Shown here: positions 3,987 to 64,000 of the stretch, piece by piece
Position numbering within the stretch: the stretch's first letter is position 1
Layout: every line of letters begins with the position of its first letter
Source: an uncultured delta proteobacterium
GTDB lineage: Bacteria > Desulfobacterota > Binatia > Bin18
Assembly: GCA_963733195.1 (NCBI GenBank)
Contig: CAVTCR010000065.1
Span: 1-64,000, forward strand
Length of the DNA: 64,000 nt
Direction of reading: 5' to 3'
The notes under the pieces: model-generated
What the model was told of the DNA's origin: nothing
Databases searched by the model: none
The model's input: only the letters and a program-made list of their open reading frames with translations
Made by a program: the position numbers and the translations under genes

Positions 3987-4213
3987 GAACACTCTCCCTT
4001 TTGCTACAAGGGTAAAGGTACGAGATGAGGAAAGACCCGTCAACGTGTCTGGGTAACAGAGAGCATACGAAGGTAAGAAGAGAAAGTGGGCAGATATGAA
4101 GGAGTGCTCATTTCTGCTGAACGTCAACAAATAGGGTGAGAAGCGGGGGGAGGAAATTCATGAGTGATACTCATTGTTGAAACGTTTCTTGCAGCAGTCT
4201 AAGCGGTGACTCA

Positions 4214-54314: not shown

Positions 54315-55019
54315 ATGCAGCTCGTCGTCCGAGATGTCTCTAAGCTTTTCAATGTGTCGGAAAAGACCATCTATCGATGGATCTCGCAGGGAGTGCTGCC
54401 TGCCTATCGTGTGAATGACCAGTATCGATTCAATCGGGCGGAACTCCTGGAGTGGGCGACCTCGCGGCGCATGAACGTCTCGCCAGACATTTTTGCCGAG
54501 CCAGAGAGTAGTGCGACACCCCTCCCTGGCTTGGTCGATGCCCTCCAAGCCGGTGGCATCTTTTACCGGATCGGCGGTACGGAGAAGGAGTCGGTCCTGC
54601 GTGCGGTGGTCGAGACTTTACGGCTGCCTGAAGAAGTCGATCGCGAGTTCTTGCTGCGAGTGCTGTTAGCCCGTGAAGCGTTAGAATCGACTGGCATCGG
54701 TGATGGGATTGCGATCCCCCACGTGCGCAATCCTGTCGTTCTGCATATAGCCCGGCCTATGATCACCTTATGTTTTCTCGATCATGCGGTCGATTTCGGT
54801 GCACTCGATGGGAAACCGGTCAGTATCGTCTTTTCCTTGATTAGTCCGACCGTCCGCGCCCATCTTCGCCTCTTGTCTCGGTTGTCATTTGCGCTGCAGG
54901 ATCCAGGTTTCAAGGCCGTGATCCATCGCCAGGGAGCCCGTGATGAGATCTTTGCGGAAGCGCACAGGGTCGAGGCGGGACTGAAATACGACCCGACAGC
55001 AACGGAGCGGAGAGGATAG
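54315..55019 (+). CDS. excisionase-type HTH + PTS EIIA(Ntr-like) fusion regulator
   Basis: VSEKTIYRW..LPAYRV..QYRF; RE...STGIGDGIAIPH; DGKPV. Confidence 0.9.
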   Translation: MQLVVRDVSKLFNVSEKTIYRWISQGVLPAYRVNDQYRFNRAELLEWATSRRMNVSPDIFAEPESSATPLPGLVDALQAGGIFYRIGGTEKESVLRAVVETLRLPEEVDREFLLRVLLAREALESTGIGDGIAIPHVRNPVVLHIARPMITLCFLDHAVDFGALDGKPVSIVFSLISPTVRAHLRLLSRLSFALQDPGFKAVIHRQGARDEIFAEAHRVEAGLKYDPTATERRG

Positions 55020-57913: not shown

Positions 57914-58558
57914 GTGCTACTCGGGATTGATGCAATTCTGGTCGTTGTTGTCTTGACAAACTTACTGGTGCTGGGCTCCAGTCGCTTAGCAACCTGCATC
58001 CGCAGCGTGGCCCTCCAGGGTGTCCTGCTCGGGGTGATGACGTTCGTGGCGCACGACAGCGCCTCTCCGCTGCGGACCACCATCTTGGCGATCGCGAGTA
58101 TCAGCATAAAGGGCATTGCCTTCCCGGCGTTGTTATTTCGTGCACTTCGCGAGGCGGAAATCCGGCGAGAGATTGAACCGTACGTGGGTTACAATCTCTC
58201 CATTCTCATTGGCTTGGCGATGTTGCTGTTCTCGCTGTGGCTGAGTGAGCGGCTGCCGTTGCCGCAGGTGCCTATCTCGTCCCTGATTGTTCCAGTTGCC
58301 CTGTGTACGAGTTTGATCGGCCTCTTCGTCATTATCAGCCGGAAAAAAGCGATCACCCAGGTCCTGGGCTATCTCGTGCTTGAGAATGGCATCTATGCCT
58401 TTGGCGTCGGTGTGGTGCCGCACTCTCCGCTGTTGGTCGAACTCGGTGTGCTCCTTGATGTTTTTGTCGCCGTTTTCGTTATGGGGATCACGATTTTCCA
58501 CATCAGCCGACAGTTCGACCACATCGATACCGACCGGATGGTACTCCTCAAGGATTGA
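57914..58558 (+). CDS. hyfE: Ehr/hydrogenase-4 membrane subunit (HyfE-like)
   Basis: QVLGYLVLENGI, VELGVLLD. Confidence 0.88.
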   Translation: MLLGIDAILVVVVLTNLLVLGSSRLATCIRSVALQGVLLGVMTFVAHDSASPLRTTILAIASISIKGIAFPALLFRALREAEIRREIEPYVGYNLSILIGLAMLLFSLWLSERLPLPQVPISSLIVPVALCTSLIGLFVIISRKKAITQVLGYLVLENGIYAFGVGVVPHSPLLVELGVLLDVFVAVFVMGITIFHISRQFDHIDTDRMVLLKD

Positions 58559-60036
58559 CTGCTATGTTGCTTGGGCTTTTACTTACTCCTACTGTCGCTG
58601 GCCTCCTCGCCTTCGCCATTCGCCCCGATGGGCTGCGCCGTGGGCTGCTCTTCATCACGGCGTTGTTGCACACCGGCCTTCTTATCGCGGCCTGGATGAC
58701 ACCGCCAGCACCACTGTTGGGTGGGTGGTTGTGGCTCGATGCCGTCGGTCGAGTGTTCCTTGGTATTACGAGTGTCTTGTTCTTCACGGTCGCAGTGTAC
58801 GGACTGTCCTATCTGCAACGCGAGCATCAAACGACCCATGCGGACTTTGAAGAAGGGTTTCTTTTTGTTGACGCACCAGAGGCGCGCTTCACTGGGTGTT
58901 TGCTGCTCTTCCTGGCAGCTATGACCTTAGTCACAGTGAGTCAACACTTCGGCATTCTCTGGGTTGCCATTGAAGCGACGACGCTGGCGAGCGCGCCGCT
59001 GATTTTCTTTCATCGCCATCATCGGTCGCTGGAGGCGACGTGGAAATATCTGCTGATCTGTTCTGTGGGGATCGCGCTGGCGCTGCTCGGCACCTTTTTT
59101 CTCGCCATCGCCGCGACGCAAGCTGACGGATCGATGTTACCTCTTGCCGTTCCTACGCTGGTACAGGAAGCTGCGCGGCTCCACGATACCTGGTTGGCAG
59201 CCGCGTTTTTGCTCTTGCTGGTCGGCTATGGCACCAAGATGGGTCTTGCGCCGCTACACACCTGGTTGCCAGACGCCCATAGTGAAGCACCCTCGCATGG
59301 TCTCGGCACTGCTCTCTGGCACGCTCTTGAACTGTGCCTTTCTGGGTCTCTTCCGGGTACAGCAGGTGTGCGCTGCTGCTGGCGCTGCTGCATTTGGTCA
59401 AGAACTCTTCATCGGATTTGGTCTACTGTCGATGGCTCGTCGCCGCCGTATTTCTCCAAGGACAAACGGACTATAAACGGTTACTGGCCTACTCAAGTGT
59501 GGAACATATGGGGATCTTGGCATTGGGTGTTGGTCTCGGCGGTAGTGGGACGTTTGGGGCGTTGCTGCACGCCGTTAATCACTCATTAACCAAAGCGATG
59601 CTCTTTCTGGTGGCAGGGAATATTTTGACAGCCTATAAGTCAAAGTCGACGGCTGACGTCCGTGGGGTACTGCGGGTATTACCCATCTCCGGCGTGTTGT
59701 GGGTCGCTGGGTTTCTCGCCATTACTGGCTCGCCTCCCTTCGGTCCATTCCTCAGCGAGTTCACCATCCTGAAAGCCGCATTGGATCAAGGACGAAATGG
59801 GGTCGCGTTCGTCTATCTGCTTCTCTTAGCTGCAATTTTCGTCGGTATGGCCTCGGCAGTGCTCGGGATGGCCCAGGGAACTCCTGGGACAACTGCGGTC
59901 ACGATCAGGTTACTCTGAGTCAGCGCTGACCATCGTGTCACCCGCTGTTTTGGGAACTCTCGTTCTTATTCTTGGACTCTATCTCCCACCACCGTTACGA
60001 GAGACCCTTGAAGAGGCGGCCCGAATGTTGAGGTAA
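58555..60036 (+). CDS. hyfF: Ehr/hydrogenase-4 antiporter-like subunit (HyfF-like; frameshifts)
   Basis: EATTLASAPL, GYGTKMGLAPLHTWLPDAHSEAP, KRLLAYSSVEHMG. Confidence 0.85.
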
Positions 60037-61570: not shown

Positions 61571-62378
61571 ATGTTGAACCTCCTCCGTGCGCGCTCCAGC
61601 AAGGACATCGACACTATCGATATCCACGAGCACTCACGGGTACTGCCGGACCGGTTTCGTGGCCGGCCAGAGATCGATGCGACGCTGCGTGCTCAGGAGT
61701 GCCGCGTGTGTGTGGACGCCTGTCCGACTGACGCGATCGACACGAGACACACATGGATGGCGGCTGGATCTGGGGCGCTGTCTATTCTGCACGGACATGT
61801 GAAGAGGCGTGCCCGACCGACGCCATTCATTTCACCCAGGATCATCGACTGGGCACGAGAACACGGGATGATCCTGATTATGCGCACTTCTGCGCTCCCG
61901 CTGGCGCAAGCGCTTGAGGAGACAGACGCGTCGCCTGTTTGGTCGCTCGCTCAAGCTGCGCCAAGTCAGCGCTGGCGGCTGCAACGCCTGCGAGGCGGAT
62001 GTCAATGTGCTCAATACGGTGGTGTTCGATCTGGGGCGCTTCGGCATCCAGTTTGTGGCTTCTCCTCGGCACGCTGATGGATTGCTGATCACGGGACCCG
62101 TGACCGAAAATATGCGCCTCGCCCTGCAGAAGACGTACGATGCGGTTCCTGCGCCGAAGATCGTCATTGCGGTGGGTGCTTGCGCTATTTCCGGTGGTCC
62201 GTTTCGTGATCATCCGGAAGTCCACAACGGAGCTGACGCGGTGGTCCCGGTCGATCTGTACGTGCCCGGCTGTCCACCGCATCCAGTCACGATTCTCGAT
62301 GCGCTCTTACGACTACTGGGAAGAATACCCAACGAGCGTCTGCCCTTCGGCGCCGTAACGGGGAGAATCCATGAGTGA
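61571..62378 (+). CDS. Ehr small subunit, 4Fe-4S ferredoxin + NuoB/HyfI-like fusion (frameshifts)
   Basis: CRVCVDACP, DLGRCLFC, SAGGCNACE, ASPRHAD, GACAISGG, PGCPPHP. Confidence 0.85.
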
Positions 62379-63431
62379 TGACGAAATGCGCGGTGCACAG
62401 AAACCTCGGCATAGTGACGTTCGATCAGTGAGCCGTTCCCGACCGGCGTACTCGCCTTCGGTGGGGCGGTCATTCGCTCGACCCTCATGCGTGAAGTGCT
62501 CGACCTTGTAGTGCGCATCGCGCCGTCAGACGCGAGCGTCTTGCTGACCGGGGAAAGCGGCGTAGGGAAAGAGGTGGTCGCGCGGGCGATTCATCAACTG
62601 AGTCCACGGGCGTCCCACGAGTTTGTCGCCATCAACTGCGCCTCGCTCTCGGGGGAAACCTTGGAGAACGAACTTTTCGGCCATGAAAAAGGAGCGTTTA
62701 CCAGCGCCGATGAGCGGAAGGTCGGCGTGTTTGAACTGGCCGACAGCGGCACGCTCTTTCTTGATGAAGTCAATGAGATGGGGGCTGCCTGTCAGGCAAA
62801 AGTGCTGCGAGCCCTAGAGCGGCGAGAATTTCGCCGCCTAGGCGGCACCCGGAAAATCAAAGTCGACGTGCGCCTCGTGACCGCCGCCAATGTGGACTTA
62901 CACGAGGCGGTGCGGACGCGCCGGTTTCGCGAAGATCTCTTCTATCGGCTGAACGTAGTGCATATCCACATTCCCCCGTTGCGCGAACGGCGGGAGGCAA
63001 TCGCGCTCATGACGCAGCAGTTTCTGCAGGAATTCTGCGAGAAATATCACAAGCGGGGACGTCACTTCACGGACGACGTCGTAGAACGCTTCGTCCAATA
63101 CCCCTGGCCAGGCAACGTGCGCGAGTTGCGCAATGTGATCGAGAGTCTGGTGCTCACCACGCGCGGGGAGCAGATTGGGCCCAAAGATCTGCCTGCGAAT
63201 ATTCGCGCGGTGGCGCCGTCGCGCGAAATCCACCTGCCGATTGGGGTGACGCTCCAAGATGCTGAGAAGGAAATTTTGCGCTGTTATCTTGAGATCTATC
63301 CCACGCGGAAGGAAGTGGCGCGGGTGCTCAATATTGGCCTGCGCACTTTGCACGCCAAGATCAAAGCCTATGGCCTTCCTCTCCGCCGCGCTGGTAACGA
63401 AGCATCCTCACGTGCCAAATCGGCACGTTGA
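62371..63431 (+). CDS. sigma54-dependent activator without N-terminal sensory domain (start uncertain: 62371 with frameshift, or 62487)
   Basis: [35 protein letters not shown]-terminal HTH. Confidence 0.88.
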
Positions 63432-63511
63432 ACGGCTCCTATTTCTACAAAACGTGCCAAATCGGCATGTTTTTACAAGTACTGAAAGGCAAACCTGCCA
63501 TTTTGGCACAT
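63410..63511. promoter_or_regulatory. three phased palindromic enhancer (UAS) sites TGCC-N5-GGCA
   Basis: cores start at 63413, 63455 and 63496 (42 and 41 bp spacing); the first two are ACGTGCCAAATCGGCAYGT. Confidence 0.75.
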
Positions 63512-63594
63512 TGTTGGCCTCAGCTCAGCGGCAGCGCCGATAGCGAGCGGCTAACCGAATAAACTTTTCGCAGCATTGTCATATCCTGACCGCA

Positions 63595-63610
63595 CGGCAT
63601 TTCTTTTGCT
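63595..63610 (+). promoter_or_regulatory. sigma54 (-24/-12) promoter
   Basis: CGGCAT-TTCTT-TTGCT with GG-N10-GC spacing, about 85-180 bp downstream of the UAS sites. Confidence 0.7.
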
Positions 63611-63620
63611 CTACCCATTA

Positions 63621-63831
63621 CCCATGAGTGAGGACGGCGACGAATCGCATCGGTATCGTGGCAAGGAGGGGGCTCAGCGTCGGTTCCTGTTCTCCTGTAA
63701 TGAGTGACGAACGCCGAAAACACGCTGAGAGGCATCCCTGGACTGCATCGCCATACTGATAGTAGAGGCAGAAGGGATGAGGGTACGATGCCGATCGGAT
63801 TCTACTGTGGGTGCTGTCCTCACAAGATGGG
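63621..63831 (+). ncRNA. candidate structured RNA or leader (three-way junction)
   Basis: manual pairing of nested helices from CCCAT (63621) to ATGGG (63831); 5' end coincides with the predicted sigma54 +1. Confidence 0.55.
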
Positions 63832-64000
63832 AGCAGGTGGGTACAGCTAGTTCGCTCGGTCTCCCTCGCGGTACCTGCCACCCCCTACCCACTCGTGCAG
63901 GAGAGACAACGCCCCGTCTTCTCTGGGACAGGGTGCCAGGAGGAGAGGGTCCGACGGCAGGTGAAGATGCGCATTGCAGAAACGAGTGACCATGCCACGA

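Follow-up and report, generated by a model that had tools for sequence, protein, structure and literature searches.

A long-range RNA helix at the start of a putative cis-acting leader in a sigma54-dependent operon of an uncultured delta proteobacterium

The window analysed here is the first 64 kb (64,000 nucleotides) of a 142-kb contig from an uncultured delta proteobacterium, whose assembly comprises 6.95 Mb in 87 contigs; reading was continued past the window edge in locus L002. At the end of the window lie a gene for a sigma54 enhancer-binding activator, three palindromes, a -24/-12 promoter and a region of ~370 nt (63621-63991) that reaches to the start codon of a further gene (Table 1). 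This region, which the original prediction described as a discrete, highly structured RNA of ~210 nt, is the subject of this report, and we argue that it is probably a structured 5′ leader of the downstream mRNA, in which a long-range helix has been conserved.

Table 1 Features at the end of the window, with coordinates in the window
Feature	Position	Strand	Basis or remark
Sigma54 enhancer-binding activator gene, PspF-like architecture	62487..63431	+	Pfam hits
Three putative activator-binding palindromes (GTGCC-N5-GGCAC type), 20 nt each	63410-63429, 63452-63471, 63493-63512	.	Spacing 42 and 41 nt
Sigma54 promoter, CGGCATTTCTTTTGCT	63595-63610	+	GG at 63596-97, GC at 63608-09
5′ domain closed by interrupted long-range helix	63621..63831	+	Minimum free energy (MFE) fold, RNAalifold
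27-codon possible remnant open reading frame (ORF; MSEDGD...)	63624..63707	+	AUG inside the 5′ strand of the helix
Junction strand GGCAAGGAGGGGG, Shine-Dalgarno (SD)-like	63660..63672	+	Unpaired in MFE fold
Inner arm CUCAGCG/CGCUGAG with variable tip	63673..63729	+	Fold and alignment
Hairpin 2, loop CUCCCUC	63835..63879	+	Best-conserved block of the leader
Small hairpin	63898..63926	+	Removed by a clean 29-nt deletion in L020 and L021
SD sequence and ATG (63992) of the CorA-cytoplasmic-domain-like gene	63981..64000	+	Gene extends to contig position 64721

The activator matched the Pfam families Sigma54_activat (PF00158, E 7e-65), AAA_lid_14 and HTH_8, and has the architecture of the PspF type, an AAA+ sigma54 domain followed by a lid and a C-terminal helix-turn-helix (HTH) domain, with no N-terminal sensor domain found by Pfam. 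The Walker A motif is GESGVGKE and loop 1 reads GAFTSA, the usual loop consensus of sigma54 activators being GAFTGA. Activators in relatives are 345-400 aa long and carry a tail of only 27-81 aa, without a Pfam match, ahead of the AAA+ domain; the corresponding short tail upstream of 62487 is in a different frame in this assembly and is frameshifted relative to L021. Sigma54 itself is encoded in the genome (rpoN). Upstream of the activator in the window is an Ehr-like operon of the complex-I type, and the original prediction had taken the structured RNA for the output of an Ehr-linked activator. That part of the claim which assigns the sigma54 promoter to the adjacent activator was upheld, but the link to the Ehr-like operon is not general, because in locus L028 a FemAB-like gene precedes the activator instead. 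Directly ahead of the Ehr-like (complex-I/Mrp-like) operon, a gene at 54315-55019 encodes a protein with an HTH (MerR/HTH_17) and a PTS EIIA-2 domain, which may be that operon's own regulator.

The three predicted TGCC-N5-GGCA palindromes and their spacing were confirmed. This motif occurs 176 times in the 6.95-Mb genome against 141 expected, and the locus is the only place in the genome where at least two copies lie inside 120 nt; in distant relatives the palindromes take the form GTGC-N7-GCAC. The predicted -24/-12 promoter was also confirmed, with a GG-N10-GC core that is constant, and a spacer that is variable, in L021, L022 and L023 (the L020 contig is cut inside the motif). The same holds for the sigma54-like motif ahead of the downstream gene in all eight places found in family genomes and in 22 of 34 metagenome loci, and 10 of the 12 metagenome loci lacking it have less than 470 nt of upstream sequence. 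The activator 3′ end, three GTGC-N7-GCAC sites, the sigma54 motif and the gene follow each other in six of the eight family-genome places which, together with the presence of the motif in all eight, argues that activator, sites, promoter and gene are a conserved cassette. In the 7 homologous places of family genomes, three sites equivalent to the palindromes precede the promoter. Transcription from sigma54 promoters usually begins 11-12 nt after the -12 GC, and by this spacing the transcript would start near 63620-63621. One genome (G011, contig C11 12410-15162) carries two paralogous units, L008 and L014, which share a strand and are separated by ~2 kb; activator-type sites, a sigma54 motif and a CorA-domain-like gene belong to each of them separately.

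The gene that the original prediction proposed to look for beyond the window edge was identified, and its start codon lies inside the window. Its core is a 209-aa ORF (contig 64092-64721) without a Pfam match. Of the 54 other genomes of the family, 6 carry homologues of the core ORF, as do 34 metagenome loci, and conservation of the core protein extends to 42 further places, among them 7 in family genomes and the 34 metagenome loci; in contig scans, a single-protein query returned nothing and the alignment A1 query returned the same five loci as the genome search. In L028 a neighbouring protein of 381 aa matches Pfam CorA (E 8.5e-8) and also contains pentapeptide repeats; the family profile aligned to its residues 58-266 with a probability of 99.9%. 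Direct matches of the core protein to CorA in the PDB were not significant (E 0.7-0.9), and it is indirectly, via the L028 neighbour, that we class the product as CorA-cytoplasmic-domain-like. The products of the operon comprise a receiver-like protein, CorA-domain-like proteins, a HATPase_c-like protein and a pentapeptide-repeat protein.

The start of this gene is conserved. The SD sequence is AACGAG here and AAGGAG-N5-ATG in all four relatives of the clade defined below; the ATG lies 102 nt ahead of, and in frame with, a conserved W-x-D-L core in L020-L023, and 100 nt ahead of it here, where there are two 1-nt gaps. The assembly is short of one base at each of two T-runs in the first 33 codons (near 64022 and 64075). 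An extra T is present at both gap sites in a 151-nt contig that comes from an RNA library and is nearly identical to our sequence, so that the apparent frameshifts probably reflect errors in the assembly or differences between strains. Several more genes of the contig seem to be split across frames, namely an antiporter-like gene present as two overlapping ORFs (58555-59918), overlapping Fer4/NuoB-like ORFs (61571-62378), the N-terminal tail of the activator (62360-62487) and a malic-enzyme-like gene downstream (L002 3651-4845). Each of 18 public runs contains a small fraction (0.15 or less) of the words searched for, and contigs from four public runs cover the coding part only (L002 979-1796); they can show neither transcript ends nor strand, and their absence from the leader carries no information.

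For the region ahead of the gene, a clade was assembled from our sequence and four metagenome contigs (L020-L023; leader alignment A2), whose core proteins are 70-84% identical to ours. A further locus, L024, was left out of the alignment since its gene is broken off at residue 22, where unrelated upstream sequence abuts it (L024 1-340), in what is either a rearrangement or a chimeric contig. Leaders are 72-84% identical to ours in pairwise comparison, mean column identity in A2 is 84%, and the clade shows indels of 1, 2, 8 and 29 nt, with no reading frame common to the five members on either strand. Between 63000 and 64000 no terminator-like site was found on the + strand, all four such sites being on the - strand, and there were no sigma70-like promoters. 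Because of these frame-breaking indels, the lack of a shared frame, and the lack of an intervening terminator or promoter, the ~370 nt of 63621-63991 are taken to be a non-coding leader in the clade, lying between the sigma54 promoter and the first conserved start codon. The earlier reading of ~340 nt without a credible ORF was accordingly sound as regards frame conservation across the five members, and needs amending at its end, where the ORF-free run (63621-63991) gives way to a real start codon at 63992. The claim of a discrete RNA product was not supported. No + strand terminator-like site or sigma70-like promoter separates it from the gene, conservation runs into the SD-ATG, and in distant relatives the same slot is occupied by a protein gene.

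The MFE fold of 63615-63840 has a free energy of -92.5 kcal/mol (z = -3.41), a value matched by 1 of 200 shuffles, and contains every segment that the original prediction had listed for a long closing stem and two arms. The stem was said to start at +1; the domain does begin at 63621, but the outermost five pairs of the MFE fold (63615-63619) sit upstream of the predicted +1. The outer helix pairs 63621-25 with 63827-31, 63628-39 with 63812-23, 63642-46 with 63798-802 and 63649-60 with 63784-95, giving an interrupted helix of ~35 bp around ~150 nt. The three-way junction within it is present in our MFE fold and is only partly conserved, the second arm (CATCCCT/AGGGATG) being disrupted by a 2-nt deletion in L022 and L023. 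The stem of the first, inner arm is paired in 97% of alignment cells and never varies, so it offers no covariation evidence, and the helices at its tip are paired in 72-74%. The junction strand is constant in four of the five clade sequences (GATAATGAGGGGT in L022), and in an alternative fold from RNAalifold its AGGGG pairs with UCCCU at 63735-39.

Downstream of this domain, hairpin 2 has 18 of 20 columns invariant at 63852-63871, where 4-fold sites of the adjacent gene are 63-68% identical between sub-clades. It is followed by ACCCCCUACCC, not by a U-tract, and there is no U-tract after either domain. Its loop (CUCCCUC, 63861-67) is complementary over 7 bp to GAGGGGG of the junction strand (63666-63672); this pairing shows no informative variation and its terminal pair fails in three of five sequences, and the contact is given here as a lead only. 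The small hairpin is dispensable, being taken out by the deletion in L020 and L021.

The family had not been recognised from the letters alone, and this was borne out by Rfam 15, which gave no match at the gathering score over the whole window and, at E <= 10 over 62000-64000, only mir-5366 (16.2 bits against a threshold of 73 bits, on the - strand over the palindromes). A match to a known family or repeat, named beforehand as grounds for rejection, was found neither in Rfam nor in the genome searches. Megablast-type and blastn (word size 7) searches returned no further genomic copies, the next best match being 20 nt (E = 0.77), and a DNA search of the 701-nt region against 40 relatives returned just three spurious short matches of 26-53 nt (E 0.004-0.007). 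A covariance model of hairpin 2 (R1) found the five clade copies only, with hits in one of 55 family genomes (our own) and in none of the other 37 loci searched. Elsewhere on the contig (C65), + strand windows at 4182, 134358-134471 and 74016-74468 fold far better than G+C content predicts, with residuals to -32 kcal/mol that exceed that of the leader itself; the one at 4182, inside the window, has no Rfam match at the gathering score.

Conservation of the outer helix was assessed with 39 outer pairs taken from our sequence alone, and the expectation was calculated from how far 4-fold sites of the neighbouring gene have diverged. The pairs were kept in 37, 39, 32 and 33 of 39 cases in L020, L021, L022 and L023, respectively, against 25.4, 26.7, 22.6 and 21.4 expected (P <= 0.0014). 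Retention also exceeded the expectation at the substitution rate of unpaired columns (P <= 0.0012 in all four relatives) and at the stems' own substitution rate (P = 0.055, 0.003, 0.019 and 0.061). RNAalifold identified two outer pairs, A2 columns 38/184 and 41/181, that changed on both sides, and in all five sequences the fold of the + strand is the more stable of the two, by 2.6-21 kcal/mol, owing to G-U pairs. Pair-preserving substitution, the check originally proposed for this element, is thus seen at these two pairs and in the retention of the outer helix, but the shuffle control for covariation within the clade was weak (see below). Together these comparisons support selection on the outer helix in the clade.

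More distant relatives have a different leader. The distance from promoter to W-x-D-L core is 469-496 nt in our clade versus 515-541 nt in 16 other loci, of which 15 carry an ORF of 129-130 aa and one (L011) a degenerate ORF of 123 aa. The conserved 129-aa ORF (MSTQATKKQVLLMNDQPE...) is present in 14 metagenome loci with spacings of 515-530 nt, and L008 has a version of 130 aa; the slot and length of our leader match this intact gene of at least 15 relatives. A profile of the ORF found 42 PDB sequences at E <= 1 (best 0.0056), nearly all of them response-regulator receiver domains and colinear with it, and we call its product receiver-like; the L008 ORF alone reached Pfam Response_reg at E = 0.046 only, and the L011 ORF had no match. 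The 14 loci of alignment A3 were drawn from the 22 promoter-bearing metagenome loci (promoter at -515 to -530), leaving out 5 short-leader loci and the 3 clade members, and alignment A4 excludes L011 and L032, whose starts are unclear.

In these 14 coding loci, RNAalifold paired the segment around the AUG of the receiver-like ORF with a segment ~170 nt downstream. This helix has 21 pairs and is 93.2% paired, against at most 52% in controls in which the partner was slid along the sequence, and both partners had changed in 5 pairs, where shuffles gave 1.7 +/- 1.1 and reached 5 in 2 of 500 cases; the helix of the coding relatives is therefore well supported. No similarity could be detected between the leaders of L008 and L011, or between either of them and ours; both fold with a closing helix that covers the AUG and encloses ~190-210 nt. 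In our clade the helix begins at the predicted +1 and contains the AUG of the 27-codon ORF, an ATG in our sequence, L020 and L021 that is ATT in L023 and GTT in L022. This short ORF is possibly the leftover of the start of the receiver-like gene, the likeness to which is visible by eye only and is not significant.

The receiver-like gene has been lost more than once, because about ten loci (5 places in family genomes and 5 metagenome loci) have short leaders and in L010 there remains only a 28-codon in-frame fusion of the two ends of the ORF, ~225 nt before the core. In short-leader relatives the same promoter lies ~30-130 nt ahead of the gene's GTG; loci with leaders of 30-130 nt include L009, L012, L013, L014, L034, L039, L041, L042 and L048. 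Descent of our own leader from the receiver-like gene is unproven. A receiver-like protein profile against six-frame translations of our leader gave at best E 0.37 (hmmsearch), colinear and not significant, and DNA profiles of leader and gene (nhmmer) gave nothing significant in either direction, so that the case for a remnant rests on position, length and the 27-codon ORF.

We consider it probable that 63621-63991 is an untranslated, cis-acting, structured 5′ leader of ~370 nt on a sigma54-dependent mRNA, and that its helix governs translation, stability or processing of that mRNA. From what is known of sigma54 biology, the activator would bind the three palindromes and open the -24/-12 promoter, and the transcript would start at the foot of the ~35-bp interrupted helix with its ~150 enclosed nucleotides, then run on through conserved hairpin 2 to the SD-ATG, where translation of a soluble CorA-cytoplasmic-domain-like protein would begin, with more genes downstream. 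The long-range helix would be the conserved working part, hiding the receiver-like AUG in distant relatives and retained in this lineage after the reading frame had gone. Acting in cis, it could stabilise the mRNA by leaving no single-stranded 5′ end, it could be a double-stranded processing site of the kind cut by RNase III, or it could prevent initiation at the former AUG and thereby restrict ribosome loading to the downstream gene.

Several observations weigh against this interpretation. Covariation in the clade is weak, with 5 pairs changed on both sides against 3.2 in shuffles, a count reached in 75 of 500, and the four relatives form two close pairs and thus provide about two independent comparisons. 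The L020 domain is no more stable than shuffles (z = 0.0), and the inner helices, including the second arm, are kept no better than at the neutral level in L022 and L023 (24 of 38 pairs). When all 2510 windows of its length were compared across the two strands of the contig, the element ranked 14th in GC-adjusted fold stability; fold stability alone is therefore unremarkable, and a 64-kb scan would meet several such windows. Leader identity in the close pairs is below that of 4-fold sites (0.91 versus 0.97 and 0.88 versus 0.95). A crude test for a duplex between the first 75 nt and the stretch at 140-300 nt was significant for our sequence, L008 and L011 but not for L022, L040, L036, L033 and L026; segments of this length give too high a background, and the test is not used in support of the coding group. 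Finally, the existence of short-leader loci without the helix means that the helix is dispensable for the operon as such.

Within L020/L021 and within L022/L023 the leader has diverged at least three times as much as 4-fold sites, an order that is reversed between sub-clades; recombination, co-assembly or constrained synonymous sites could be the cause of this pattern.

Part of the same evidence would fit a decaying relic of the receiver-like gene that has no RNA function and whose helix persists through short time or local mutation bias. A relic would explain why slot and length match those of the receiver-like ORF, would be in keeping with the loss or internal deletion of that gene in other lineages and with the 27-codon ORF, and would be expected to show unconserved inner helices, a leader that outpaces 4-fold sites within close pairs and an unremarkable fold in L020. 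We nevertheless regard it as unlikely, since the outer stems are kept far above expectation at both the unpaired-column and the 4-fold rates, 63852-63871 is nearly invariant between sub-clades whose 4-fold sites are 63-68% identical, and no homology to the receiver-like gene was established by the profile searches. A bolder form of the leader hypothesis, which we hold to be unlikely and slightly less probable than a relic, is that a protein gene has turned riboregulator. Its frame would have been lost and the mRNA segment kept as a ~370-nt cis-regulatory RNA built on the ancestral AUG-hiding helix, in which the SD-like decoy strand (GGCAAGGAGGGGG) and the near-invariant CUCCCUC loop of hairpin 2 would swap partners to gate the CorA-domain-like gene, or from which the domain would be excised as a stable RNA derived from the 5′ untranslated region (UTR).

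A stand-alone, trans-acting small RNA (sRNA) or protein decoy of ~210-260 nt, terminated within or cut from the 5′ UTR, is improbable. Such an RNA would make sense of a compact, stable domain that begins at the predicted +1 of a sigma54 promoter with activator sites, of an SD-like strand left unpaired in the MFE fold and constant in four of five sequences, of hairpin 2 immediately after the domain and of the absence of an ORF, and sigma54-dependent sRNAs are known (see below). However, it would need a 3′ end of its own, whereas no + strand terminator-like site was found in 63000-64000, hairpin 2 is followed by ACCCCCUACCC in place of a U-tract and conservation extends to the SD-ATG; in short-leader relatives the same promoter stands directly ahead of the protein gene, and the genome holds no second copy or target-like match.

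The suggestion of a riboswitch-like leader, which would sense a ligand or ion and gate the downstream gene, draws on the length and structure of the leader, on the relation of that gene to the sensing domain of a Mg2+ channel and on the conserved, complementary junction strand and hairpin loop (GAGGGGG/CUCCCUC). It fared badly, and we think it very improbable, as Rfam gave no riboswitch match even at E <= 10, the multi-helix core lacks conservation above the neutral level in L022 and L023, there is no terminator or demonstrated SD-sequestering platform, and the loop-junction pairing does not covary and loses its terminal pair in three of five sequences. An element acting as DNA, either a mobile element of the miniature inverted-repeat kind or an inverted repeat that binds protein, inserted behind the promoter, would account for long imperfect inverted repeats around ~150 nt but can practically be dismissed, given that the sequence is single-copy in the genome (which rules against a repeat or mobile element), was not matched in 40 relatives, folds better as + strand RNA in all five clade members and is replaced by helices of differing sequence at the same place in different lineages.

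If the leader works as proposed, it has partial counterparts in known systems. In phage MS2 RNA a long-distance interaction hides the start region of the maturation gene, and hok mRNA is subject to fold-back inhibition. As in these, a strand with a start codon near the 5′ end pairs with a strand ~170-210 nt downstream, and initiation would need RNA that has not yet folded or has been processed; unlike them, the operon is chromosomal and sigma54-driven, and the hidden frame appears to have been lost in this lineage while the helix stayed. The ompA 5′ UTR is a 5′-terminal stem-loop that stabilises a bacterial mRNA. Our helix likewise starts no more than a few nucleotides from the predicted +1, so that hardly any or none of the 5′ end would be single-stranded, but in contrast to the small terminal hairpin of ompA it is long-range, with ~35 bp around ~150 nt, and its stabilising effect is putative. 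In pspF-pspA circuits a sensor-less activator drives an adjacent sigma54 operon. The present locus shares with them a sensor-less AAA+/HTH activator with a short N-terminal tail beside a target promoter with multiple upstream sites, and differs in that its genes point the same way instead of diverging, that no PspA-like partner was found and that the activator loop is GAFTSA. Qrr and GlmY/GlmZ are sRNAs that depend on sigma54. The locus resembles these and NrsZ in having a -24/-12 promoter and upstream activator sites that would drive a non-coding structured RNA, but each of those sRNAs has a 3′ end of its own and acts in trans, whereas here there is no terminator, the RNA would run into a conserved gene and Rfam gives no match. 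NrsZ is reported to be a sigma54-dependent sRNA (PMC4253122). A full-text literature search on sigma54-dependent sRNAs, leaders and enhancer-binding proteins returned nothing on this operon or leader.

On present evidence this is not a new class of riboswitch or sRNA; only if the doubtful change from protein gene to riboregulator were true would it represent a new sigma54-linked RNA class, seen so far only in uncultured bacteria. The annotation of the locus is corrected in that the downstream gene starts within the window, at 63992. If the helix is functional, the locus would clearly illustrate that an RNA structure can survive the coding frame that it formerly regulated, and a family of sensor-less sigma54 activators would control an operon in which RNA structure limits expression of the first cistron. 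Activator, promoter and leader, joined to a reporter, would offer a simple system in which to study the influence of long-range 5′ helices on the output of sigma54 operons.

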